This document shows, piece after piece, positions 2,924 to 44,372 of a stretch of 64,000 bases of DNA. Made by a program: the position numbers and the translations under genes. The stretch comes from Candidatus Woesearchaeota archaeon (lineage in GTDB: Archaea; Nanobdellota; Nanobdellia; Woesearchaeales; ARS49). The notes under the pieces are model-generated. The model worked only from the letters and a program-made list of their open reading frames with translations. It did no database searches and was not told where the DNA came from. Position 1 is the first letter of the stretch. Every line of letters begins with the position of its first letter. Where the stretch lies: positions 71,523 to 135,522 of the forward strand of contig JACRKG010000019.1 in NCBI GenBank assembly GCA_016215315.1. Direction: 5' to 3'.

Positions 2924-5900
2924 ATGACTAAGATTAACCGCTTAGTGCTTAACGGTTTTAAGTCATTTGCAAAACACACCGAGCTAGTTTTTTCCCGAGA
3001 TTTTAATTGCGTAATAGGACCAAACGGATCTGGTAAAAGTAACATATTAGACAGTTTATGTTTCGTTCTAGGAAAATCTTCTTCAAAATCATTAAGAGCA
3101 GAAAAAAGTTCGAACTTAATTTATAACGGAGGAAAGACAAAAAAGCCAGCAAACCAAGCTGAAGTAAGCATTTATTTTGATAATGAACAAAAGATTTTCC
3201 CTGTAGAAACTGGAGAAGTTAAAGTATCAAGAGTTGTCAAGCAAGATGGCGCTAGCAAGTACTTAATTAATGATAAAACCAAAACAAGACAGGAAGTTAT
3301 AGAACTATTATCATACGCGAAAATTGATCCTGACGGATATAACATAATTCTTCAAGGAGATATAGTTAGATTAATTGAAATGTCAACAGTTGAAAGAAGA
3401 CAAATTATTGAAGAAATTGCAGGAATAGGAGTTTACGAAGAAAAGAAAGGTAAAGCACTCAACGAATTAAATCATGTTGATGAAAAAGTAAAAGAAGCAG
3501 AAATAGTTCTGAAAGAAAGAGACGGATACTTAAAAGACTTAAAAAAAGACAAGGAACAAGCACTCAAGTTCAAAGATATAAATGATAAAATCAATTCTTA
3601 CAAAGCCAGCTATTTAAAAAAGAAAATCGATAAAAAAGAAGAAGAAAAAACAAGAATAGACAGCAAAATAAAAGACGTACAAGAAGGATTAAACAAAATC
3701 AACGAAGTAATAAAGAAGTTAAGAGAAGATAAAACTGCAGAACAAGAAAAAATAAAAGCAATAAATGACGAAGTAGAAAAACAAGGAGAAACGGGACATT
3801 CTAATCTGAATAAAGAAATAGAAAAACTAAGAGTAGATACTGCAACAAACAGCACAAAAGTAAACAATCACAAAGATGAATTAGTAAAAATAGAAAAAAG
3901 AGAAAACGAACTTGGAGAAGGACTAAAAGATTTAGAAGGAAAAAGAGGACAATTATTTGCACAAAAGAAAAGTGTAGAAGAAACGAAAACTAACGTTGAA
4001 AAAGAATTAGAATCATTAAATAAAACAATATTAGAATTCAGAAAGAAACATAGACTAGATGAAAGCTCAAATCTAGAAGAACAAATACATGAGTTTGATA
4101 AAAAAATAGAAGAAATACAGAGAGAAACACAAGAACAAAGAGGCGAACACCAGAACTTACTGAGAGAAAAAGACAAGTATGAATACCAATTAGAAACAAT
4201 TGATGAAAAAATAAGAAAAGTTAATACACTCATCAACGAAAACAAACAAGAAATAGAAGACTTAAAAAATAAGAAAAAAGAATTCAAAAGTTCAGTTCTA
4301 GAATTAAACAATTTGTTGAATGAAGACGTAAAAAATGCAAGAAGACTCGCAGATTTAAGAGAAAATTTATTCTCAAAAAGACAAGAAGTATCAAAACTAG
4401 AATTAAGAAGAGATGAATTCAAGGAAAGCATTTCAACAAACATAGCAGTAAAAAAAGTTCTAGAAAACAAAAAAAAATTAGGAGACATAAGAGGAACAGT
4501 TGCAGAATTAGGAGAAGCAGACAAAGAATACTCATTGGCATTAGAAATAGCCGCAGCACAAAAAATTCACAGCATAGTAGTAGGAGATGATAAAACAGCA
4601 GTAAACTGCATAAATTTCTTGAAAACAAACAAACTGGGAACGGCAACATTTTTACCTTTAAACAAAATCAAACCATTCCCAGCAAATGAAGAAATCAAAA
4701 AACTAAAAGACAAACAAGGAATTCACGGACTAGCAATAGAATTAATAAATTATGATTCAGAATACAAAAGTATTTTTAGTTATGTCTTCGGAAACACACT
4801 AATAGTTGATTCTATGGAATTAGCTAGAAGCGTAGGCATAGGAAAAACAAAAATGGTCAGTCTCGATGGAGACGTAGCAGAATTCTCAGGAGCAATGATT
4901 GGAGGCTACAGACACAAAAAAGAAGGAAGCTTCAAAGAGAAAAACATTAACAATTTTTTGGAAAAATCACAAGAAGAATTAGCAAATATCGAGAAAGAAG
5001 TTAGAGAATTAGAAGAAACAAGAAAGAATAACGAAGAAAAAATAACAAAATTAAGAGAACATAAAGCAGAACTAGAAGGAGATATCATAAAACAAGAAAA
5101 AGTACTACATTTAGATACGGATGATTTAGAAGCCGACAAAAACTTCAAAGAAGAAATGTTGACAGGAATAAAAAACACAGAACAAAAACTAAAAGATCAA
5201 GAAGAAAAAATAAACACGAAAACAGAAGAAATCACCCAGCTAAAAATAAAAAAACAACAATTAATGTCTCAAATAATACAACTCAAAAAACCAACACTCA
5301 TAGCAGAACTAAATGCTTTCGAAGGGAAAAAATCACAATTAATTGAAGAAAGAATAAAATTAGAAGCAGAACACAACAATCTTGAAAGCAGAGAAAAAGA
5401 AGTGCTAGGCAAAAGTGGAGAACAAATACTAAAAACAAAAGAAGAACTAGAAAAAGAAAAGGAAGAAATAAACAAACAAATAGTTCTATTAGAAGAAGAA
5501 AACAAACAAAAAAACAAATTTTTAAGCGAAAAAGAAAAAGAACAAGAAAAATTCATGCACCAATTCAAAAAATCATTCGATCAAAGAAAAAAATCACAAG
5601 ATATGATAATGGCAATAGAAACAAGATTATTAAAAGATGAAGAAAAATCAAGAAAAGAAGAACTAGAACTAAACACATACTCAATAGAAAATGCAAGAAT
5701 AAACGCAGAACTAGGAAGTTTCACAAGTGAATTCAGCCAGTACAATAACGTCCCATTAATAGACGACAAATCAGAAGAAGAACTGAAAAAATCAGTACAA
5801 AGCTTTGAAAGAACTCTTGCAACCATAGGAAACGTAAACATGAGATCTTTAGAAATCTATGAATTGGCAGAAAAAGAATACAACAATTTAATAGAAAAAA

Positions 5901-23768: not shown

Positions 23769-23840
23769 ACAATAAGTAAAGAAAGAACATTTTTAAAAGT
23801 ATGTGTTGGAGATGATAAAAAAAGAAAAAGAAAAAAAAAT

Positions 23841-24941
23841 TTATCTTCCTGTGTTTGTGTTGCCGCTTGTTGCAGGTGTATTGTTGTGGTTGTTTTCTTG
23901 TTGTTCTTGAGCAACCATAGACTTCAATCCTGAAACTTCCAATAATTGATTAATGTCTGTGCTCCTTAAGTTCATACCACCACCGTTTGGCATTCCTATA
24001 ATTACTCTGTGCCCTTCAGTCATTATTTCGTAATACCTTAGTTTAATTTGAGTCAATCCACCTTCTCCTGAAAGTGCTTCTCTTAATTTTGTATTACCTG
24101 CAGCAACTGCTTCAGCTTCTTTTAATTTAGCAGCAGCGTCTTGTTGTCTTGCAAAATATTCTGCATCTGCTATCTGGTGTATTTTTTGTGATTCACCATT
24201 TGCTTGAGCAATTATTGTATTATATTGACCTTGTGCTGTTGCTAGCTCTCTTTCTCCTTGATTTTTTGCGGTTGCTATTCTGTCGGTTTCTCTTCTCATA
24301 TCTTGAGGTGCAATTCTTCTAGCTTCAATAGCTTCTCTGTATGCCTCATTGTTGAATTGGTAGTTTGTTACTGATACTCCTTCAACAAGTATTCCTAAGG
24401 GATTCAAGAATTTTTCCATTTCAGTCTTAACTATTCCCGTATACTCGTTTCTTTTAGCGCTGTCATAAAAGCTTTCTGAAGGTAATTCTCCTAGAACTTT
24501 TCTAGTAATACTTCTTATTGCGTTCATAACAACTAGTTCTCTTATTTCTTCATCCGATCCAGCAACATACTCTAAAATGAATGGTGCTTTTGCAGGATTT
24601 ATTTTGTAAGAAACTGTTAACGCAACCCAAATGTCGTTTCCTTCGTTTGTTTTTAGAGGAAGTGCGTGATTGTTTCCATATTCTTTAGGAGTTCCTCCTT
24701 TTGTTTGATCCATTGCAGCCATGCTAATTGTTTTAGTTGCTGTGTCAAATGTAGTCCAGTCATTAATTATTGGCATGAAAAAATATGTTTGCCCTGGTTC
24801 GTAAACCATTTGTTCTACTCCTTTGCCGAACCATTTTTTTGTTCTTACTCCTACTTCATTGGAGCCTGTTGAAGAACAACCTGAAAAAGCCATTGATGCT
24901 GCAAGTAATGCAGCTAGTCCTGTTAGTTTTAATAATTTCAT
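23841..24941 (-). CDS. SPFH/Band 7 protein with lipoprotein-like signal peptide and long coiled coil
   Basis: MKLLKL...MAFSGC; EVGVR..., YEPG...P, AQ/AE-rich coiled coil; GGAGG RBS. Confidence 0.88.
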   Translation of the reverse strand: MKLLKLTGLAALLAASMAFSGCSSTGSNEVGVRTKKWFGKGVEQMVYEPGQTYFFMPIINDWTTFDTATKTISMAAMDQTKGGTPKEYGNNHALPLKTNEGNDIWVALTVSYKINPAKAPFILEYVAGSDEEIRELVVMNAIRSITRKVLGELPSESFYDSAKRNEYTGIVKTEMEKFLNPLGILVEGVSVTNYQFNNEAYREAIEARRIAPQDMRRETDRIATAKNQGERELATAQGQYNTIIAQANGESQKIHQIADAEYFARQQDAAAKLKEAEAVAAGNTKLREALSGEGGLTQIKLRYYEIMTEGHRVIIGMPNGGGMNLRSTDINQLLEVSGLKSMVAQEQQENNHNNTPATSGNTNTGR

Positions 24942-24942
24942 T

Positions 24943-26094
24943 TTAGTTACCTCCTTGAGAAGGTTGACTTGTTTTCTTAGTTTTTCCTTCCAATTTCTCA
25001 ATTATGCTTGCTGTATCAAAAATATCTGTGTTACTTGAATCAAAAATGAATACATCAAGATCTCTTAACATTTCTACTGCTTTTAGTGCAGCAACTCTTT
25101 CTCCACCCTCTCCGTTTAAAGACTGACTTATCATTTCTTTTCCTGTAGCTTCTGCTTGTTTTACTACTAGGTCTCCTTCAGCTCTCTTTTGTCTCTGATA
25201 ACTTTGAGCTTGTGCAATTATTTTTTGACTTTCAGCTTCAGCTTCTTTAACTTTTACTTGTGCTGTTGCAAGCCATTCTGCTGTTTTTTGATCAGCAAGA
25301 GCTTTTTGCTCAGCAACTTTCACTTGTTGTGCAGCAGTCAATTTTAATTGTTCTTGTAAAATCTTTTTCTCTATTGAGTCTTGATATTGGTCCGAATAAC
25401 GGAAAAACCTAAAAAGAACTTCAATAACATCTATGCCTAAATCTTTAAGCTCTGTTTTCAAAGCTACTTTTGCTTCCTGAATTTTACTTTCTCTCAAAGG
25501 AGTTTTATCCATTTCACTTTCAGGCACATTAGGATCACCTTCTGGAACCTTATAAAATTCTTCTGCTTTTAATTGTCCTAAATATTTTCTTAATAACTCT
25601 GTTGCTCTTGGCGCAACATAAGTTTGTTCAAAAAGTTTTCCAGGACCTATTTTTTGTAATACTTCTAAAGCTGCTTTTCTTTCTTTTGTTTCAGCAGTCA
25701 TTTCTCCTATTCTATAAACAATAGTATAGTCGCACTCAACTTTACCTCCGTCAGATAAGTCTACTGTTAAAGGAGGTAAATAATTCAAGCTATCAAAATC
25801 GCTATCACTACCCCCATTTCTTACTCCCGAATCTAAAAATTGTAATCTGTTTGGAAATCTTTTAAATTCATGAACTCCGGGAATCGCTAAATAAACTCCA
25901 GGACCATAAACTTTTTGTTCTATACCGCCGCCCATTTTATTTATTTTTACTGCAACTTCTCCAGGTCTCACATAAGTTGTGCATATGTTATATCCGAGAA
26001 TTGATCCTACAAATAATACTCCTGCTACAATTCCTGCTTTTGCCAATCCCCCTAAACCGCTATTTCCTCTTGAACTTCTCATAAAGTCTGTCAT
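24943..26094 (-). CDS. SPFH/Band 7 protein (HflK/C-like) with N-terminal TM and coiled coil
   Basis: TYVRPGEVAVK, GPGVYLAIPGV, LSDGGKV, AEAE/AEGD coiled coil; GGAGG RBS. Confidence 0.88.
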   Translation of the reverse strand: MTDFMRSSRGNSGLGGLAKAGIVAGVLFVGSILGYNICTTYVRPGEVAVKINKMGGGIEQKVYGPGVYLAIPGVHEFKRFPNRLQFLDSGVRNGGSDSDFDSLNYLPPLTVDLSDGGKVECDYTIVYRIGEMTAETKERKAALEVLQKIGPGKLFEQTYVAPRATELLRKYLGQLKAEEFYKVPEGDPNVPESEMDKTPLRESKIQEAKVALKTELKDLGIDVIEVLFRFFRYSDQYQDSIEKKILQEQLKLTAAQQVKVAEQKALADQKTAEWLATAQVKVKEAEAESQKIIAQAQSYQRQKRAEGDLVVKQAEATGKEMISQSLNGEGGERVAALKAVEMLRDLDVFIFDSSNTDIFDTASIIEKLEGKTKKTSQPSQGGN

Positions 26095-26095
26095 T

Positions 26096-26932
26096 TTATT
26101 TTCCTCCATTGTTTTGATTTTTATCATATTGTGCAGCATCATTTTCAGCTGCATCTAGTTGTTTTTGAGCTTCATTTTTTGCTCTAAAAATTTCATCAGC
26201 AGAAGATGTATAACTTCCGATGACTAAACTAGAAATATTAATTCCTACCGATTTAAGAACTGTGTAAAACTCTTCAGTTCCTTCTCTCACTTTTGCTTTT
26301 CTCAAAGCAGAATCGTAAAATTCACTAGTTTGTAATAAACTTAAATATCTGCTTAAACTTTCAGTCAATCTTGGTTTTATGTAGTTTTGCTTAAGTGTTT
26401 CTGTGCTAGGATCACAGAAAAGTTCAAGAAAGAGTGAATTAGGTAATTCTTGACCTTCATCAGTAGCGCTACTTAAAGAGCTTGCTAAATCACAAACCAA
26501 ATTATACTTATAATTAACAACAGTTCCATCGGCCAATAATGCTGATGCTTCATCAGATATTTCTAATTTTGCTGGAATTGCTTTAACTTCTGAAAATCCA
26601 GGGATAGAAAGGTAAACTCCGGGAGCTACTGCCGAAACGTTTTCTTGAGTATGCTTAACTCCAAATTTTCCTTTTTCTACAGTTGTAGTTACAAAAGGAT
26701 AAGCAAGTACTGTGCCTAATAATAATGTTCCTGCAGCCATTAAGGTTTTTTCTAAAACACTCAAACCTTTATTATTAACTTGTTTATTAAAAGGAGTTTT
26801 TTGTTTTCCAGAACCAGTTTCATCTGATTGAACAGTGCTTTCAGTTTCTTGTTCATTGTTACCTGAACTAGCTCCGTGTCTTCTATGACTTCCTCTTGAA
26901 TGAAACATTATGTGATGTATTGCAGGATGCAT
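26096..26932 (-). CDS. Short SPFH-like protein with His-rich N-terminus
   Basis: TM, then VEKGKFGVK, APGVYLSIPGF, ADGTVV, SEFYD; paralogous to neighbours, short coiled coil. Confidence 0.78.
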   Translation of the reverse strand: MHPAIHHIMFHSRGSHRRHGASSGNNEQETESTVQSDETGSGKQKTPFNKQVNNKGLSVLEKTLMAAGTLLLGTVLAYPFVTTTVEKGKFGVKHTQENVSAVAPGVYLSIPGFSEVKAIPAKLEISDEASALLADGTVVNYKYNLVCDLASSLSSATDEGQELPNSLFLELFCDPSTETLKQNYIKPRLTESLSRYLSLLQTSEFYDSALRKAKVREGTEEFYTVLKSVGINISSLVIGSYTSSADEIFRAKNEAQKQLDAAENDAAQYDKNQNNGGK

Positions 26933-26941
26933 TTTGCGTAA

Positions 26942-27631
26942 TTATTTACCCTCCGTTTTTTTATCATACTGTCTTGCTTCTTTTACTAGTGTGTTTAATT
27001 TTCTATTGTAAGCTTTATCTACAAACCATCTTTTTGCTTCAGGATAAACCAAGCCACCCACTGCAATACCTAAGTCTACAGGTATTTCAAAAATCCAGAA
27101 TGGTGGTGTTTTTAGCAATAGCCAACCAGCTGCTGCGCCTGTTGCAAAATAACCTGCTCTTCCAACACCTCTGCCAAATACTAATTTGTATTTTTGATCT
27201 TCAATTTTTGTTTGCTCAAAAGAATCTTCAACGTATTGTGGGAAGAACCAAGAATTAATTTGTTCTTCAATTTGATCGAACTTATCTTGGCTCGTCATAG
27301 GTTCTAAAGCATTAATATCATCTGCACTTTGAGTTGCTCGAAATTTGTTTTTAACTTCTCCGAGTTTTTTCTCTACAAAATTTCTGCACTTTTTTTTGTA
27401 TTCAGCTCTTAAGTCTTTTTCATCATAATCAGCATAAACTTCTTTAGTTGCAAATGGATTAAATTTACCTAAAAAACTAGGTTTTTCTGAAGACAATTCA
27501 TTAATATTAATTGGAGCGCCTCTCAATTCATCTCTAACAGTAATAAAAAAAGCACGTCTATTTCTTTCTAAGTCTAGAATTAAATCTGTACTTAATTGTT
27601 CCAACGAAAGTTGACTCGAATTATTTTCCAT
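26942..27631 (-). CDS. Hypothetical helical protein with C-terminal hydrophobic hairpin; first gene of SPFH operon
   Basis: Long ORF; GRGVGRAGYFATGAAAGWLL...LGIAVGGLV; start after GAGGGT. Confidence 0.72.
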   Translation of the reverse strand: MENNSSQLSLEQLSTDLILDLERNRRAFFITVRDELRGAPININELSSEKPSFLGKFNPFATKEVYADYDEKDLRAEYKKKCRNFVEKKLGEVKNKFRATQSADDINALEPMTSQDKFDQIEEQINSWFFPQYVEDSFEQTKIEDQKYKLVFGRGVGRAGYFATGAAAGWLLLKTPPFWIFEIPVDLGIAVGGLVYPEAKRWFVDKAYNRKLNTLVKEARQYDKKTEGK

Positions 27632-27854
27632 GATATTAAAACCCTCAATTTTACTAGTAGACAACATAACAAGTATATAAATGTTTTGTTTTTTCACCAT
27701 TGTTTAGTGGTGACAAGATGAATTAACAGTTCACAAAAGGCTTTAAAGAGAATTATTACTAGTAACTCTACAAACACATACTCACTGCGTGTTTTGAGCT
27801 TTTTTCCCAAAACACACCGAAAGTCTTAAAAATAAATCAATACTTCTTATCCTT

Positions 27855-27962
27855 GGACGGCCATAGGGGAGTGGTCCTACCTGTTCCCATTCGAACACAG
27901 AAGTCAAGCACTCTTCCGTGCTGGCGTGTACTCCGCTACGGGGGAAAACCGGTAAGCTGTCC
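27855..27962 (+). rRNA. rrf: 5S rRNA, stand-alone
   Basis: GGACGGC/GCTGTCC helix I, CCATAG, CCCATTCGAACACAGAAGTCAAG, AGTA/GAA-type loop E region; upstream TATA-like element and downstream T tract. Confidence 0.93.
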
Positions 27963-28026
27963 GCCTTTTTTTGCTACGCAAAAAAAAATGTTGGTAAATG
28001 TTTCTGGATTTTTTCTGTCTTTTTCT

Positions 28027-30037: not shown

Positions 30038-32164
30038 GTGTTAAAAATAAATAAAAAAGTACTAATTGTTGGTGCAAATGGCTTTTTAGGAAATAAATTG
30101 GTCAAAGTCTTTTCTAAAGAGTTCGCAGTAGAAGGTACTTATCACTGTCAATCTAAAGAAAATTTAATTCAATTAGACATAACAAACAGTGAACAAACCA
30201 GAGAACTAATAAAAAAATTAAATCCAGAACTCATTCTTCTGACTGCGGCAGAAACAAATGTTGATTTATGCGAAAAAAATCCAGAATATGCCAAAAAATT
30301 CCATGTTTCAGGCATAAAAAACGTGGTTGACAATTGTAACGACAGAAAATTAGTTTATTACTCTACTGATTCTGTTTTTGATGGAGAGAAAGGGGATTAT
30401 GTTGAAACAGATACGCCTAATCCGATAAATGTTTATGCAAAAACAAAACTTGAAGGAGAAAAACATGTCAAAAGTTTAGAAGATCATTTAGTTTTAAGAA
30501 CTTGCATGTTATACAGTGATCAACCAGATAGTCCTAAATTTATTAATTGGCTTATAAAAAATTTATCAGAAAATAAAGAAGTTAAAGTTGCAACAGACTT
30601 GCATGGAACTCCTACACTGATAGATGATTTGGCAAATGCCACTCTTGAATTAATAAAAGAAGAAAAAAAAGGAACATATCATGTTGCTGGAAGTTCCGCG
30701 CTCAGTTGTTATGATATGGCTTTACGAGTTGCAGATGTTTTTAATTTTGATAAAAACTTAATTCTTCCGGTAAAAAATAAAGATCTCAAAAGAGCAGCGC
30801 CAAGACCCGAGTATGGAACTTTAGATATTTCAAAACTAGCAAGTGAAGGAATAAAAATGTCAACACTTTTAGAAGGTCTTCTAAAAATCAAAGAGTCTAT
30901 TGGAACAAAAGTAGCGCCATCTCAATATAAGAATTTAGAACAATGCAGAATTTGTAGCAGTAAAAACCTTGAAGAGTATTTAGACTTAGGAAATATGCCT
31001 TTAGTCAATAGCTATGTAAAACAAGAACAGTTACATAGAGAAGATCAAAGATTTCCATTAAAAATAAGATTTTGCAAGGATTGCTCACTCTCTCAATTAA
31101 GTATAGTTGTTAATCCAGAAATAATGTACAAAAATTATTTTTACAGATCTTCCGTATCAAAGACGTTCACAAATCATTGTTTTGAATTTGCAAAACAATC
31201 TGTAGAAAATTTCAAGCTTTCACAAAATGACTTAGTTGTAGATATAGCCAGTAATGACGGATGTGCTTTAGGTGAATTTAAAAAATTCGGAGTAAAAATA
31301 TTAGGAATTGATCCTGCAGAAAACTTAGCAAAAATCGCAAACGAGAAAGGAGTTCCAACATTGCCTAAGTTTTGGAATGAAGAAACTGCTAAAGAAGTTT
31401 TAGATAAATATGGAGAAGCTTCACTTATCAATGCCTCAAATGTTTTTGCTCACGTTCACGATTTAGATTCATTTCTTAGAGGAACAAATTATTTATTAAA
31501 AGGAAGCGGCGTTTTCACAATAGAAGTTCCTTATATGCTTAATTTTGTCAACAAAACAGAATTTGATACCACATATCATGAACACTTGTCTTATTTCTTA
31601 GTAAAACCATTAACTGTTCTTTTTAAAAAACACAATTTAGAAATATTCAACATAGAAAAATTCACAATACATGGAGGTTCGATGAGAGTTTACGTAAAAA
31701 AAGAAAGCGACAAAACACTCAAAGTCAATAAAGATTCAATAAAATGGCTTCTAGAATTAGAAGAAGACTTAGGTCTTCATGATATTAGCACTTACCTGGA
31801 GTTTTCAAAAGATGTAGAAAGAATAAAAAGTGATCTATCCGGACTGCTCACAAAACTAAAAAAACAAGGAAAAACAATTGCAGCATACGGAGCATCAGCA
31901 AAAGGAACAGTTTTATTAAATTATTGCGGCATTGGAAAAGATTTGATAAACTACGTTGTAGATGACACTCCTGAAAAACAAGGAACTTACACTCCAGGAC
32001 AACACGTACCAATAGTTAATTCTTCAATGCTAAGTGAACAAAAACCTGATTACTTGCTTTTATTGGCATGGAATTTTGCAGAAGAACTCATGAACAAAAC
32101 TCAAGACTACAAAAATAAAGGAGGAAAATACATAGTGCCGATACCTAGTGTTAGAGTTATTTGA
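30038..32164 (+). CDS. Fusion of RmlD-like 4-ketoreductase and NDP-sugar C-methyltransferase
   Basis: GANGFLG, YSTDSVFDG, YAKTK, AAPRP; then CRIC..C..C Zn site, DIASNDG, HEHLSYF, HGGS, YGASAKG, LAWNF. Confidence 0.9.
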   Translation: MLKINKKVLIVGANGFLGNKLVKVFSKEFAVEGTYHCQSKENLIQLDITNSEQTRELIKKLNPELILLTAAETNVDLCEKNPEYAKKFHVSGIKNVVDNCNDRKLVYYSTDSVFDGEKGDYVETDTPNPINVYAKTKLEGEKHVKSLEDHLVLRTCMLYSDQPDSPKFINWLIKNLSENKEVKVATDLHGTPTLIDDLANATLELIKEEKKGTYHVAGSSALSCYDMALRVADVFNFDKNLILPVKNKDLKRAAPRPEYGTLDISKLASEGIKMSTLLEGLLKIKESIGTKVAPSQYKNLEQCRICSSKNLEEYLDLGNMPLVNSYVKQEQLHREDQRFPLKIRFCKDCSLSQLSIVVNPEIMYKNYFYRSSVSKTFTNHCFEFAKQSVENFKLSQNDLVVDIASNDGCALGEFKKFGVKILGIDPAENLAKIANEKGVPTLPKFWNEETAKEVLDKYGEASLINASNVFAHVHDLDSFLRGTNYLLKGSGVFTIEVPYMLNFVNKTEFDTTYHEHLSYFLVKPLTVLFKKHNLEIFNIEKFTIHGGSMRVYVKKESDKTLKVNKDSIKWLLELEEDLGLHDISTYLEFSKDVERIKSDLSGLLTKLKKQGKTIAAYGASAKGTVLLNYCGIGKDLINYVVDDTPEKQGTYTPGQHVPIVNSSMLSEQKPDYLLLLAWNFAEELMNKTQDYKNKGGKYIVPIPSVRVI

Positions 32165-39412: not shown

Positions 39413-40456
39413 TAGAAACTTTTTAGAAATCGATTTTAAGTCATAATTTTTTATTTTCAAGAATGCTTTTTCAGTTAATTTATTTAGATTTTTACTATTT
39501 AGTGCATAAATCAATTTTACTATTAAACTTTCTTTATTTTTAGGACTAAAAAACAACAATTCGTTTTCATCAAACATTTCTTTAATTTCTGGCAAATCCG
39601 ATGTTAAAACCGGAGTTTTACATGCAACACATTCAAGTATGCTTAAGGGATTAGTTTCAGTGGCAATTAAGTCAGGATAAGGAAAAACTGCCAAGTAAGC
39701 ATTATTTATTTCATCAACCAAATTATTAGTTTTTCCGAATTTAATTAATACGTTTTTTTCTTCTTTTAAATCTTCTATTAACGGTTGATAAAGTTGTTCA
39801 TCATAATTTTGATCTTTACACAAAAACTTAAATTCTATGCCTTTTACGAGTTTGTTTATTTTCGGTATCGCGTTCATCAAAAGTTCCACACCTTTTCTTT
39901 TGGAAAATGGACCGTAGTAAAGAATTGTTTTTTTGTCAGAATTCTTCTTTTTCTGTAGCTTGAATTTGGTTAAGTCAATGTGAGAGTTTATCAAATTTAT
40001 TTTTTTTTTGCAACCATTTTGCATGAGTTTTGTTTTTATTATGTTTGAGTTAGTTATTATTGCATCAGCAAGGTTGAGCAAAAATGCAAATTTATAACTA
40101 CCTAACCAGTGTTTTGAGTGTGATTTTACATTATGAACTATTTTCGTGCGCGAAAATAGTCTAACAAATAATAAATCTAGAATCTTTATTGGTGCTGAAC
40201 TAAATGATTGAACAATGTCAAATTTTAAGTTCTCCTTTTTTTGGCACAAAAAAAGGCCAAAGGGATAAAATAATTTATTAAATCTAAATATTTTAATCCC
40301 TTCTAAAATTTCTTCTTTTTTGCTATTTTTAGTGTGCCTGGCAATTATTACAACTTTATTTTCTTTGCTGAGTTCTTTAGCTAGGCTTAACACACTTATT
40401 TTAGTTGCTTCGGGTATTTCTGTATCTATAAAATTAGTGTAAAACGCAATATTCAT
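39386..40456 (-). CDS. Glycosyltransferase family 4
   Basis: RKGV, ETNPLSILECVACKTPV. Confidence 0.85.
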   Translation of the reverse strand: MNIAFYTNFIDTEIPEATKISVLSLAKELSKENKVVIIARHTKNSKKEEILEGIKIFRFNKLFYPFGLFLCQKKENLKFDIVQSFSSAPIKILDLLFVRLFSRTKIVHNVKSHSKHWLGSYKFAFLLNLADAIITNSNIIKTKLMQNGCKKKINLINSHIDLTKFKLQKKKNSDKKTILYYGPFSKRKGVELLMNAIPKINKLVKGIEFKFLCKDQNYDEQLYQPLIEDLKEEKNVLIKFGKTNNLVDEINNAYLAVFPYPDLIATETNPLSILECVACKTPVLTSDLPEIKEMFDENELLFFSPKNKESLIVKLIYALNSKNLNKLTEKAFLKIKNYDLKSISKKFLSVYLSLKK

Positions 40457-43410
40457 TTTTTATTGTTGAACCCCAAAGTAGAGTAATTTATGCCATTTTC
40501 AGAAAAGCTTTTGTGAGAAAAAATATTCCATGCATCAAAAAACAAACCATTTGGTTTCATTAGTTTTGTTAAATTATGAATTTCAAGATTGGAATAAGCC
40601 GGATGATTGTTCATTATTAATACACAATCTGCATCCTTAAACCCTTCTTCAGGATTTGCGAACTTTACGTTTAATTGTTCTATTTTTTCTTTTGGAACTA
40701 TAGGATCATAACCGTAAATATTCCCGGTGTGCTGGCTCAGTAAGCCTACCACATCAATAGTTGTGGAGTCTCTCATATCTGTTGTTTCCGGATGTCCTTT
40801 GAATGCGAACCCTAAAATAAAAATTTTGCTTTCAGCAAAATTTTTCCCTCTTGATTCAAAATGCGCCTTTATCTTATCAACTACATGATGAACCATTTTT
40901 TCATTTATTTCTCTTCCAAAAGAGACTAGTTGTGGAGAAAAACCTACTTTTTTTGCGCTTTCACAAAAAATATGAGGATCTTTTTTCAGGCAAGTACCTC
41001 CAACACCAGGACTCGGATAAGGTACTTTGCCTCTGGAATATCCTTCATTAGCAGCACGAATAACATCCGAAGTATTTATGTTAAACCGATCGCAAATAAG
41101 CGCCAACTCATTAGAATAAGCAAAAGTCACATCTCTGAAAGTGTTATTGATTAATTTTACCATTTCTGCTTCTTCTAAGGAATTTACCGTTATTATTTGA
41201 TGTGTTAGTGCTCTGAAGAAATTTGATGCTAAATCAACACTTCTTTGTTCTAACCCGCCAACAATTTGAGGAAGAGTTCTTAGTTCATGCAAAGCATCAC
41301 CTTCAATGGTTCTTTCGGGTGTGAATGCTAAAAAGAAGTCAGTTCCTGCAGTTAGTTTGGACACTTCTTCAAGTAATGGGACTGCAAGTTCTCTGCACGT
41401 ACCTACTGAAACTGTTGATCTTAGAACAACCAAATCATCTTTTTTCAAAACTTTTCCAACTTCATTTAATGCATCTTTAAGAAATTGGTTGTTCAATTTA
41501 CCTTCTTTAACTGGAGTTCCAACACAAACCACATAAATGTCTTGAGAATTATCTGGAATTTTTTGGTGAACTAAAAAATTACCACCAATATGTTTTTCCA
41601 GCAAAGGAACTATTCCTTTTTCATGAACGTGAGATTTTTTTTGTTTAAGCAAATTTACTACGCTCTCATTAAGGTCGATTCCTAAAACATGAAATCCTTC
41701 ATCAGCAAGTGTAAGTCCTAAAGTTAGACCGACATAACCTAAACCAATAATGCAAACATTTCTCATTTTTGTTTCTTTTAATCTGAACAAGTCATAAAAG
41801 TTCAAAACTTCTTTTACCTGATTTTTTTCGTTAACTGCTATTATGCGTTGTATTTGACTGTTAGGTATTCGATTCTTTTTTTGATATTCTTTTATTTTGT
41901 TTCGCACAATTTGTAGCATTTCTAAGTAAGGAGTTTTGTGAGGAACAGTTATTGGATTTGTAGTCATTATTTTTTCAACAGGATAAGTTAATGGAACATA
42001 ATTCAGTATTGCCCTTCTAATATCCCCATCAGTAACTATCCCTTCAAGAATGTCATCTTCAGATGTTACTAAGCACAAACCAGGAGGTGCTCCTTTTTTT
42101 GGAGCTTCATTAATTAAACGCATAACATCTATTATGGACGTATCTTTTTTGCATTTAATTTGATCTATAACACCAGACATATTATCATCCTTTTTATCAT
42201 TAAAAGTTATTTCAGTATTTTTTAAGGTTTGTGTATTACTGACTTTGGTGAAATCTGGATTCATTCTTATGACTGGCTCTGAATCATTTTGAAGATATTT
42301 GCAAATTTTCTCAGCAGTATAACTAAACGCATCAGTCGTACCAAAAGTAGTTTTTAATTCATTTTTTAGTGCTGAATAATTTTTTTTAATTTTCTCGCCT
42401 TGAACAAATAATTTGCTCGTATCAAAATCAGGATCAAGAAATATTGCCAAATCTAATTCTTTCAGAGTTTTATTATTAAAATAAATTTCAGGGTCATCAC
42501 CTTTTTGGTATGGTAAGGTTATTATTGGTTTTTCAGTTATTATCGATTTAGCAATTGATCCCCAGCCAGATCTGCAAAAATGGAATAAAATATTATCATT
42601 CTGCAACACGTTTGGAAGTTGAACTTCACTATCTATATTTTCAACTTTTTTCGAAGAGTAAACTTTCAATCCTGATTTTGTTACATCATCGTAAAACTTC
42701 TCCAAACCCGGAATTCCCGTTATTGTTGCATATATGCCTCGTTCTATATTTACATCTGTTGTCTTATCAAGCTCATAAAATGGAGGTACATCTAGTTTAT
42801 TGCTTTTTTCAATTGTTTTTTTTCTATAGCTAAAACTATTTGGTTGTTGCATAAAGCATAAAGATTGTGAATTCTCTATTTCTTCAAAAAGTTCAGCAGA
42901 TTCATTTAAAAGTTCTTCATCTATTTCTATTTCTGAATTATTTTTAGACTCTTCCAATATTTCAGAATAAAAAGCAAAATTTGTGTAAAATGTTGGTTTT
43001 ATGGGTGTTTTTATTTGTGGATTTCTGCTTATTTCACAAATAATATCAGAACAATTTATTGTGTGCTTATCGCCGTTAAAAGTTTCTACTTCTATCTCAT
43101 TTTTGAAATGGTCTTTTAGCTCTTTTTGTTTTTCCGAGTGTATTTCAACAAATTTTTTTAAGTGTTCTTCAAAATTACTTCCAGAATAAAAAATAGAATT
43201 TAGAATTTCTCCGAATTTTTTATCAAAAAAAACATTTCTAGTAAAGTCGCCCAGTTCTTCCTGAAGAATTTTTTTTTGTTTTTCTCCATAAACTAATGGA
43301 AAGATAACCCCTAAATCTTTTTTGCTCAGCTCTGCTATTTTTTTTGATAAATGCCCGCACAAAATAAAAGGAGCATTGCCTTGAGCAAAATTAGTTAATA
43401 TATATTTCAT
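40453..43410 (-). CDS. Triple fusion: GT-B-like domain, CBS pair, WecC-like nucleotide-sugar dehydrogenase
   Basis: RSGWGSI..KPIITLP..DDPE; GIVTDGDIRRA; IGLGYVG, PER, KLINNTFRD, GGTCLKKD, GFAFKG. Confidence 0.85.
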   Translation of the reverse strand: MKYILTNFAQGNAPFILCGHLSKKIAELSKKDLGVIFPLVYGEKQKKILQEELGDFTRNVFFDKKFGEILNSIFYSGSNFEEHLKKFVEIHSEKQKELKDHFKNEIEVETFNGDKHTINCSDIICEISRNPQIKTPIKPTFYTNFAFYSEILEESKNNSEIEIDEELLNESAELFEEIENSQSLCFMQQPNSFSYRKKTIEKSNKLDVPPFYELDKTTDVNIERGIYATITGIPGLEKFYDDVTKSGLKVYSSKKVENIDSEVQLPNVLQNDNILFHFCRSGWGSIAKSIITEKPIITLPYQKGDDPEIYFNNKTLKELDLAIFLDPDFDTSKLFVQGEKIKKNYSALKNELKTTFGTTDAFSYTAEKICKYLQNDSEPVIRMNPDFTKVSNTQTLKNTEITFNDKKDDNMSGVIDQIKCKKDTSIIDVMRLINEAPKKGAPPGLCLVTSEDDILEGIVTDGDIRRAILNYVPLTYPVEKIMTTNPITVPHKTPYLEMLQIVRNKIKEYQKKNRIPNSQIQRIIAVNEKNQVKEVLNFYDLFRLKETKMRNVCIIGLGYVGLTLGLTLADEGFHVLGIDLNESVVNLLKQKKSHVHEKGIVPLLEKHIGGNFLVHQKIPDNSQDIYVVCVGTPVKEGKLNNQFLKDALNEVGKVLKKDDLVVLRSTVSVGTCRELAVPLLEEVSKLTAGTDFFLAFTPERTIEGDALHELRTLPQIVGGLEQRSVDLASNFFRALTHQIITVNSLEEAEMVKLINNTFRDVTFAYSNELALICDRFNINTSDVIRAANEGYSRGKVPYPSPGVGGTCLKKDPHIFCESAKKVGFSPQLVSFGREINEKMVHHVVDKIKAHFESRGKNFAESKIFILGFAFKGHPETTDMRDSTTIDVVGLLSQHTGNIYGYDPIVPKEKIEQLNVKFANPEEGFKDADCVLIMNNHPAYSNLEIHNLTKLMKPNGLFFDAWNIFSHKSFSENGINYSTLGFNNKK

Positions 43411-43421
43411 TCTGCCTTGCT

Positions 43422-44372
43422 TTATTCTTCCCAATTATACTTGAATGTTCCATCATCTTTTTTGCTTGCAAATCTCCCACGATAATAAGCGCGGTTTAAG
43501 AGTTCTTCATGGGATAATTCTCTTACTTCTTGTCCTAGCATCAAGTTGTATTCTTCTTCGGAAACGTATTCTTTTAATTTTTGTTTTCTTTGATCAACTG
43601 GAAGTCTTCCAAAATCGACTAAAGTTTTTAATTGCTCCGGGTTAATTGATACGGGTCCATCTTTTGTCTCAGTTTTACCCAAGATGGTAAAATGTTTTTC
43701 AATGAAATCTGCTCCGTATGAAAGAGCCGCTAGTGAAGCTTTTAAGCCATCTCTTTCAACCAGAGTATGATCGCTGAATCCAACCTTAGATGTTAAAGTT
43801 CTCAAATAATTCATTCGTCGCAAATGTATTTCTTTAAGTGGTGTTGGATAAATTGTTACACAATGAAGAAATGCGTAATCTTTTCCTTCTAAAACTTTTG
43901 CTGCTGCTTCTATTTCTTTTTGGTAAGATGCTCCTGTTGAAACAACGGCAAAATCAAAGTTTTCTTTTGCATCTTTTAATAAAGGCACACTGCCACAATC
44001 ATAACTTGCAATTTTTATGTGTTTAAAACCTATTTCTTTAAGAAATGGTATTTGTGCGCGGGTAAATGCAGTTACCATGGGGATTACATCGAGTGATTCA
44101 CATTTATCAACAAACAATCCATAAACACCTTCGTCCAAATCTAAACTACTTAATCTTTCAACTTCAGGTTGGTATGGTCTTTTAATCATTCTGATTTCTC
44201 CGCCATGGCTTATCCCATTATCAAATTCTGGTCTGTGTGTTACTTCAGAAGAGCGTACACATTGCATTTTGAGATATTTAGCTCCCGCTTGCGCTGCTGC
44301 ATTGATCATATCTTCAAGAAGATACAAATCACCTTTGTGATTTTGACACATTTCAACTATAATTTCACTCAT
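43422..44372 (-). CDS. NeuB-family nonulosonic acid synthase (no obvious SAF domain)
   Basis: E.CQNH.GD, KIASYD, VSTGA, LHCVTIYPT, GFSDHT, IEKHFT. Confidence 0.9.
   Translation of the reverse strand: MSEIIVEMCQNHKGDLYLLEDMINAAAQAGAKYLKMQCVRSSEVTHRPEFDNGISHGGEIRMIKRPYQPEVERLSSLDLDEGVYGLFVDKCESLDVIPMVTAFTRAQIPFLKEIGFKHIKIASYDCGSVPLLKDAKENFDFAVVSTGASYQKEIEAAAKVLEGKDYAFLHCVTIYPTPLKEIHLRRMNYLRTLTSKVGFSDHTLVERDGLKASLAALSYGADFIEKHFTILGKTETKDGPVSINPEQLKTLVDFGRLPVDQRKQKLKEYVSEEEYNLMLGQEVRELSHEELLNRAYYRGRFASKKDDGTFKYNWEE

Follow-up and report, generated by a model that had tools for sequence, protein, structure and literature searches.

Organization of the operon

Four co-directional minus-strand genes, in the order g1-S1-S2-S3, were analysed in a 64,000-nt window (the whole stretch of DNA studied, to whose positions all coordinates refer unless another contig or locus is named) of contig JACRKG010000019.1, assembly GCA_016215315.1, from a Candidatus Woesearchaeota archaeon. 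They encode a helical protein of an uncharacterised family (g1) and three SPFH proteins (S1, S2 and S3). As read from the open reading frame list and from the sequence itself, the operon and its signals are the following:

26942..27631, minus strand: g1, 229 aa, predicted all-helical, with a C-terminal hydrophobic hairpin at about residues 155-197; uncharacterised family
26096..26932, minus strand: S1, 278 aa, truncated SPFH paralog with a His-rich N-terminal tail, one transmembrane (TM) helix, an SPFH domain and a short C-terminal helix
24943..26094, minus strand: S2, 383 aa, SPFH protein anchored by an N-terminal TM helix, with a long coiled coil
23841..24941, minus strand: S3, 366 aa, SPFH protein with a lipoprotein-type signal peptide (AFSG/C), a 93-residue predicted helix and a C-terminal cap region
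23817..23840, minus strand: T-rich tract, read from the sequence, directly after the S3 stop codon; probable archaeal-type terminator
27674..27681, minus strand: TATA-box-like element TTTATATA, about 43 nt upstream of the start at 27631; possible operon promoter

The spacers within the operon measure exactly 9, 1 and 1 nt, as given in the initial annotation of this DNA, and the GGAGG-type ribosome-binding sites and the T-tract that it reported are likewise present. GGAGG lies 8 nt ahead of the start codons of both S2 and S3, S1 is preceded by GGAGGG at a long spacing of about 16 nt, and TGAGGG stands 10 nt ahead of the g1 start at 27631. Other in-frame starts of g1 occur at 27667 and 27700 and, as a close ortholog of this protein (P0002) bears a comparable 12-residue N-terminal extension, g1 may begin either at 27631 or further upstream. 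The element TTTATATA was recognized by its likeness to a TATA box. A scan with bacterial models of sigma-70 promoters and hairpin terminators, which carries no information for an archaeon, gave, as was to be expected, no hairpin terminator on the operon strand.

The SPFH proteins

S2 and S3 matched the Pfam family Band_7 (PF01145, gathering cut-off of 23.6 bits) with 75.2 and 72.4 bits, respectively, and S1 remained under the cut-off with 22.1 bits. The best library match of the three proteins was phrog_200, a phage family named 'lipoprotein', whose scores (104 bits for S2, 114 for S3 and 42 for S1, the last with E 1.2e-10) exceeded in every case those obtained against Band_7. S1 also aligned with S2 with 28% identity (E 3e-21) in a stretch of 253 residues that takes in the TM helix and the SPFH domain. 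It was because of this alignment and of the phrog_200 match that S1 was assigned to the SPFH proteins despite its Band_7 score. S1 stops at the point where the coiled coil of S2 starts and has no long wall helix; judged from this alignment, it is a truncated paralog of S2.

Hydropathy and composition agreed with the anchors described for the four proteins in the initial annotation, that is, a His-rich N-terminal tail (7 His) followed by a TM helix in S1, an N-terminal TM helix in S2, here found behind a basic tail, the sequence FSGC in S3 and a Gly/Ala-rich hairpin in g1. The N-terminus of S3 consists of MKLLK, a hydrophobic stretch and AFSG/C. Among its bacterial homologs, found at the loci described below, all 17 S3-like proteins have a signal peptide and a lipobox Cys followed by TPHTT, and in the S3 alignment the Cys of the archaeal protein is aligned with that of 13 of 13 bacterial sequences. 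The bacterial S2-like proteins carry a basic N-terminal tail with a PRFK or PRFR motif and then one TM helix, visible in 16 of 17 (the other is cut by a contig end). These anchors are conserved across the bacterial S2- and S3-like proteins, which shows that the use of two different anchors in the pair is a conserved design rather than a peculiarity of the window. The GEGG motif noticed earlier near the C-termini of S2 and S3 also maps to conserved glycines: G328 and G330 do not vary among 16 sequences of the S2 type, nor does G295 among 14 of the S3 type.

An AlphaFold2 model of S3 comprised strands and helices at residues 21-196, a 93-residue helix at 199-291 and then C-terminal elements. Foldseek comparison of this model gave matches over about 320-330 columns with erlin1/2 (E 3.4e-14), prohibitin (E 1.3e-13) and HflK/C (chains of 7vhq, E 4.5e-13), as well as with the cage subunits of stomatin and flotillin, the overall range being E 1e-14 to 1e-10. 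At the sequence level, the best match of S3 in the PDB was prohibitin-2 (E 5.7e-4). In the S3 model the SPFH domain leads into a long wall helix and then a C-terminal cap segment, which is the layout of cage-type subunits; S1, lacking the long helix, does not have this layout. In its alignment S2 has the length and layout of the S3 cage subunit, S3 being the one modelled. The basic tail and TM helix of S2, the lipoprotein signal in 17 of 17 bacterial homologs of S3 and the cage-type model of S3 are all in line with the outward-facing hetero-pair suggested earlier, and the SPFH domains of S2 and S3 are predicted to face outward, the first held by its TM helix and the second by a lipid anchor.

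Genes for Lgt (235.8 bits) and for LspA, the signal peptidase II (101.4 bits), are present in the genome at C43:28972-29682 (L049) and C26:30725-31111 (L050), respectively, so that lipid anchoring of S3 in the archaeal ether-lipid membrane is plausible. Lgt was detected in 38 of 41 genomes of the same archaeal order, a count that includes the unpublished genome G010, and in none of four archaeal control genomes. According to an excerpt of a 2025 paper (PMC12462473), no archaeal homologs of Lgt or Lsp had previously been identified.

The g1 protein and its family

The g1 protein matched no Pfam, NCBIfam or PADLOC family and gave no meaningful PHROG match. When used as query in a word-indexed search of 5.8 billion proteins, it retrieved only itself and one protein with 83% identity. 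An exhaustive phmmer search of 1.84 billion representatives yielded four distant relatives matching the C-terminal half of g1, and these four, used in turn as queries, led to 21 loci, all of them in Thermoanaerobaculia/Acidobacteriota metagenome-assembled genomes. Finally, a profile of 24 family members retrieved 604 proteins at E <= 0.001, and the family is thus of at least that size. Among the best 120 of these 604, all source names were 'hypothetical protein' and the organisms named were Thermoanaerobaculia or Acidobacteriota. Pfam analysis of all 24 members of the alignment gave only one marginal match (DUF7797, E 0.0088). By title and abstract, no paper describing g1 or the gene module to which it belongs was found, subscription journals and bioRxiv supplements being outside the scope of this search.

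In the family alignment, a conserved helix at the N-terminus is followed by a PQY motif and by an Arg that is invariant and precedes the hairpin. The hairpin consists of two hydrophobic helices linked by a short conserved turn containing Pro, and after it comes a basic C-terminal helix bearing an invariant Asn. The archaeal protein has an additional insert of about 45 residues with respect to the family. Its AlphaFold2 model (predicted local distance difference test, pLDDT, of 72.8) was all-helical, with helices at 10-37, 71-103, 114-147, 154-174 and 178-228. As g1 lacks a signal peptide and its hairpin is bordered by Arg/Lys residues at either end, the positive-inside rule places both soluble parts most likely in the cytoplasm. 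These features do not favour the membrane-inserting client enclosed by a cage that the initial annotation had imagined; it is likelier that g1 resides in the membrane, with domains in the cytoplasm, than that it is secreted as an inserting factor.

Comparison of the g1 model with the PDB by Foldseek gave nothing at E <= 0.001, the top rows being Efg1, CorA and alpha-pore-forming toxins at E 2-7. The best result of a wide VIA-align search was CcmC with a Z of 7.9, inside the noise range that the tool states for helical proteins, and the best ESM Atlas feature similarity (0.89, to unnamed clusters) was under the lead threshold. Two small proteins were also considered as relatives of g1 and rejected: YjeT, encoded after hflC in E. 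coli, with which g1 has no similarity, and the 64-aa partner of an SPFH lipoprotein in phage PB119, for which hhalign with the g1 profile gave a probability of 0.3%.

A conserved module in Acidobacteriota

In 17 of the 21 Thermoanaerobaculia/Acidobacteriota loci, S2-like and S3-like genes were located directly upstream of the g1-like gene and on the same strand. The g1 family was also surveyed in 301 genomes sampled evenly from the same phylum, a set that overlaps the 21 loci at least in genome G045. Six of these genomes had a family member, and in all six an S3-family gene was found on the same strand within about 1.4 kb. In the divergent genome G090 the genes overlap and are ordered g1-S2-S3, which is the archaeal order minus S1. 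Two gene orders are consequently on record, S2 and S3 upstream of g1 (17 loci) and g1-S2-S3 (G090 and the archaeon). A third SPFH gene equivalent to S1 was present in none of the bacterial loci. Of the first two genes of the operon, both of which had been thought to belong with the SPFH pair, g1 is hence conserved with it across domains and S1 is not.

The main carriers of the module are Acidobacteriota genomes of 4.5-8.3 Mb, and g1 was not found in 400 other genomes, small in size, of the archaeal order, so the module is not a feature of a symbiont lifestyle. This result affects directly the function put forward in the initial annotation, namely a host-attachment or membrane-remodelling machine of a symbiotic archaeon, in which the cage would deliver a membrane-inserting g1 to the host. 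A small genome coming from groundwater and a predicted outward orientation would suit such a machine, but the module is at home in large Acidobacteriota genomes and was not found either in 40 close relatives of the archaeon or in the 400 other genomes of its order. Similarly, the presence of alpha-pore-forming toxins among the non-significant Foldseek rows of g1 (E 2.7-7) is countered by the lack of any significant fold match, and of a signal peptide, and by the positive residues at both sides of the hairpin. No evidence supporting this function was obtained, and we give it hardly any credence.

Phylogeny and origin of the module

The host genome is of 1.79 Mb and 94.8% complete, its small-subunit rRNA is archaeal (1143 bits against the archaeal model) and the genomes of its relatives are of 0.7-1.7 Mb. 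The only full match to the DNA among sequence data was a groundwater metagenome, which is its probable source. The G+C content at third codon positions (GC3) of the operon, 14-22%, matches the archaeal background of 22.7% and is unlike that of the bacterial loci. This indicates that the operon is resident in the archaeal genome and has been ameliorated, and that it does not stem from a binning error. There was no signal of recent transfer, as the operon GC3 is not above the background, and composition yields neither a date nor a donor.

In quick trees, in which long branches were flagged, S1-S3 and their bacterial relatives formed a separate clade (support 96-98) apart from the HflK and HflC groups. 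S3 scored 27.7 bits against hflK and S2 37.3 bits against hflC, far under the equivalog cut-offs of HflK (TIGR01933, 159.4 bits) and HflC (TIGR01932, 134.4 bits). The genome has its own tandem pair of that kind on contig C39, at about 24612-26355 (locus L002, 1357-2478 and 2462-3517), with 275.9 bits for HflK and 221.5 bits for HflC, and this pair grouped with E. coli HflK (support 99-100) and HflC (support 97). According to both scores and trees, S2 and S3 are not canonical HflK/HflC proteins, and the pair falls outside the groups within which it might have nested.

A tree of 31 rows was also built for the pair, with the Thermoanaerobaculia sets thinned to 6 of 15 and 6 of 13 and with S1 omitted because of its long branch. 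The S2 and S3 subtrees agreed in topology: (pairs without g1, (archaeon, (G090, Thermoanaerobaculia))). The g1-associated sequences formed a clade with support of 96 in the S2 subtree and 95 in that of S3, the g1-less pairs being their sister group in both, and archaeal S2 was sister to the bacterial S2-like genes with support of 96-100. The congruence of the two subtrees suggests that the module evolved and moved as a unit. None of the operon genes was found in the 40 close relatives, and a g1 scan of contigs of close-relative genomes gave no more archaeal operons. As the archaeal copies are nested among bacterial ones and g1 was not found in the 400 order genomes, it is likely, and the most economical reading, that this archaeal lineage received the module as a whole from bacteria. 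One g1 match on a metagenome contig (L037) was discarded as spurious, since it was of low complexity and without SPFH genes.

HflK/HflC, FtsH and NfeD in the genome

In agreement with the earlier claim that the operon lacks the usual partners of SPFH proteins, neither FtsH nor NfeD is encoded in it. The Peptidase_M41 domain, which is the FtsH protease domain, had no match in the genome, and NfeD (PF01957) had none in either the operon proteins or the genome, these negatives referring to an assembly that is 94.8% complete.

Several other genes of these families were observed. The HflK/HflC pair of contig C39 is present in a genome without a detected FtsH protease domain. HflK scored above its cut-off in 3 of 41 genomes of the archaeal order; HflK/C is given as absent from archaea in an excerpt of a 2009 survey (PMC2636767). 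A stomatin-like gene lies elsewhere in the genome without an NfeD neighbour. On contig C36 (locus L006, 493-2244), a 583-aa protein with a weak Band_7 match (28.8 bits) has a repetitive-looking N-terminal half and a C-terminal coiled coil, and it matched no NCBIfam family. In the window, a Peptidase_S49 protein (163 bits) is encoded at 495-1514 on the minus strand and has a marginal match to NfeD1b_N (41.4 bits, cut-off of 40). Its gene is 23 kb from the operon and adjoins no SPFH gene.

Comparison with known systems

The cages formed by several SPFH proteins (HflK/C, prohibitin, erlin, flotillin and stomatin) have recently been solved structurally. To our knowledge, the contents enclosed by most prokaryotic SPFH proteins have yet to be identified.

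The closest design is that of E. coli HflK/HflC-FtsH (PDB 7VHQ, 7WI3 and 9CZ2), which shares with S2/S3 the tandem SPFH paralogs, the N-terminal anchors, the long wall helix and, as predicted for S2/S3, the SPFH domains facing outward. Unlike it, the module has a predicted lipoprotein as one of the subunits, belongs to a separate clade with scores under the cut-offs, occurs here in a genome in which no FtsH was found and has g1 as conserved partner, a protein without similarity to YjeT. SPFH-NfeD operons (stomatin/QmcA-YbbJ and flotillin-YuaF/YqiJ) resemble the module in joining one or two SPFH genes to a small co-evolving membrane protein, as described in an excerpt of PMC2636767. Nevertheless, no NfeD domain was detected in the operon or the genome, g1 is predicted as all-helical whereas NfeD partners consist of TM helices plus an OB-fold, and SPFH proteins of the stomatin type face the cytoplasm (same excerpt) whereas the S2/S3 pair is predicted to face outward. 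That survey (Hinderhofer et al., 2009), in the portion cited here, reports a conserved partner for no SPFH subfamily except those with NfeD. Prohibitin PHB1/PHB2 and erlin1/2 (PDB 8RRH and 9VVJ) form hetero-pair cages and provided the best matches of S3 in the PDB by sequence and by Foldseek, but they are eukaryotic organelle proteins with 15-17% identity, are not lipoproteins and have no g1-like partner.

A lipoprotein anchor like that predicted for S3 is also found in the phage SPFH lipoprotein of phrog_200. In the N4-like Xanthomonas virus PB119 (OP562166.1), a small gene, encoding the two-helix partner of 64 aa, overlaps the start of the SPFH gene. On this basis the operon might be a membrane module derived from a phage or another mobile element, serving for instance in superinfection exclusion or defence and akin to the phage pair. 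The PB119 lipoprotein falls in the same clade as S1-S3 (support 96-98), the phrog_200 scores given above exceed those of Band_7, and the distribution of the module in archaea is patchy. Nonetheless, the phage has a single SPFH gene and a partner unlike g1, the archaeal context is chromosomal with no phage or mobile genes found beside the operon, and only 2 of 50,697 phage records matched S3, both weakly. None of the four operon proteins matched a PADLOC-DB family at E <= 0.01, and the GC3 of the operon is ameliorated to that of the host. In view of this balance, an origin from phages or mobile elements appears improbable.

Proposed role of the module

We interpret the operon as a horizontally acquired, bacterial-type membrane module of three genes, in which S2 and S3 would form an outward cage and g1 would be its dedicated partner. 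This interpretation, which we hold to be slightly more likely than not, builds on the arrangement of the genes and the families to which they belong, on conserved synteny, on the congruence of the trees, on a cage-type fold in the S3 model and on the presence of Lgt and LspA. S2, anchored by its TM helix, and S3, anchored by a lipid-modified Cys, would together build, on the outside of the cytoplasmic membrane, a hetero-oligomeric cage like that of HflK/HflC. The helical N-terminal domain and the basic C-terminal helix of g1 would be in the cytoplasm, with the Gly/Ala-rich hairpin dipping into the membrane or spanning it. In this position g1 might act as the dedicated partner, client or organiser in the membrane patch fenced by the cage, taking the place that FtsH has in HflK/C and NfeD in stomatins and flotillins, and its cytoplasmic helical domain would be free for oligomerisation or for contact with the conserved cytoplasmic tail of S2. 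S1, an archaeon-specific duplicate of S2 minus the cage-wall helix, would probably serve as an accessory subunit or as a cap, its His-rich tail lying in the cytoplasm. Prediction of a complex of S2, S3 and g1 (full-length proteins with their own alignments, run without controls) gave scores of 0.00 and 0.00, which are no verdict either way on their physical contact.

A further step, which we propose tentatively and as a possibility, is that g1 represents a new class of SPFH-cage partner, non-homologous to FtsH and NfeD, and that cage and partner make up a unit reaching across the membrane, with a role in signalling or in the control of a channel or of curvature, which moved whole from bacteria into an archaeon equipped with lipoprotein machinery of bacterial type. 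The hairpin of g1 would then be surrounded by the outward cage of one TM-anchored and one lipid-anchored subunit, and its cytoplasmic helical domain would report or act at the opposite face of the membrane.

Several results weigh against the interpretation of g1 as dedicated partner of an S2/S3 cage. In 4 of the 21 loci the g1-like gene stands alone (L016, L018, L019 and L035), in genomes without any S3-family gene (a positive control genome gave 628 bits), and conversely 4 of the 301 sampled genomes have an SPFH pair with TM and lipoprotein anchors and no detectable g1 either in the 6.3-7 kb around the pair or genome-wide. Neither component, then, strictly needs the other, and the family of the pair is wider than that of g1. 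Lon-type proteases (Lon_C) are encoded elsewhere in the archaeal genome, so that another client of the cage is possible. The S3 model is poor past residue 294 (pLDDT < 50), and contacts of the cap thus lie outside its reliable part. As for the anchor of S3, lipid modification is a prediction, and the Phe at position -3 departs from the strict lipobox and from the consensus quoted in an excerpt of PMC12462473. Finally, what could be read of a second archaeal genome (P0002 and P0004) comprised orthologs of g1 and S2.

Some of these data would also fit a general outward scaffold formed by S2 and S3, with or without S1, whose real clients were other membrane proteins, such as a Lon-type protease or transporters, g1 being a co-transferred neighbour of unrelated function. 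Apart from the g1-like genes without the pair, the pairs without g1 and the Lon_C proteins just mentioned, the persistence of a canonical HflK/C pair without FtsH suggests that SPFH pairs can work without their textbook partner. However, g1 and the pair keep same-strand adjacency, often with overlapping stop and start codons, at protein identities of about 25-30% and in two gene orders, and the g1-associated pairs form one clade in both subtrees. Such persistent adjacency and single clades are hard to explain by hitch-hiking, and we therefore hold the general scaffold to be unlikely, if still deserving some weight, and retain the dedicated partnership of g1 with the S2/S3 cage.

Under the dedicated partnership, the module is a small three-protein system in which it can be asked what an outward SPFH cage does without FtsH or NfeD. 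The TM- and lipoprotein-anchored pair has an unnamed partner family of at least 604 proteins, with a linkage kept across the bacteria-archaea divide in two gene orders. The module would also illustrate how bacterial genes that depend on a lipoprotein become established in an archaeon, here one of a lineage with homologs of Lgt and LspA.

Stand-alone g1-like genes and g1-less pairs

The true neighbours of the four stand-alone g1-like genes were mutually unrelated (AdoHcyase, an SDF symporter, a HEAT protein, an SNF2 helicase and a permease). Open reading frames upstream of these four genes were considered as possible partners and discarded, as they had no Pfam matches or were antisense-like artefacts. 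At L035, the gene at 3233-4960 encodes an SPFH protein of the flotillin type (96.6 bits for Band_7, and a Flot domain) and lies about 3 kb upstream of the g1-like gene; the two are separated by an SNF2 helicase gene on the opposite strand and their proximity may be a coincidence. The g1-less pairs (L052-L055, in G124, G063, G227 and G237) belong to smaller Acidobacteriota genomes, of 2.3-2.8 Mb, and have a constant neighbourhood.

Surroundings of the operon in the window

The operon is flanked by a radical SAM gene, a 5S rRNA gene and glycan-synthesis genes. The stand-alone 5S rRNA gene (69.1 bits), at 27853-27965 on the plus strand, is divergent from the operon and about 220 nt upstream of g1, and it is the only rRNA or tRNA gene found in the window. 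A large glycan-biosynthesis cluster extends from 28118 to 50967. It includes NeuB and cytidylyltransferase genes, a 708-aa fusion of an RmlD-like reductase and a C-methyltransferase at 30038-32164 and, at 40453-43434, a 993-aa protein with CBS and UDP-glucose dehydrogenase domains.

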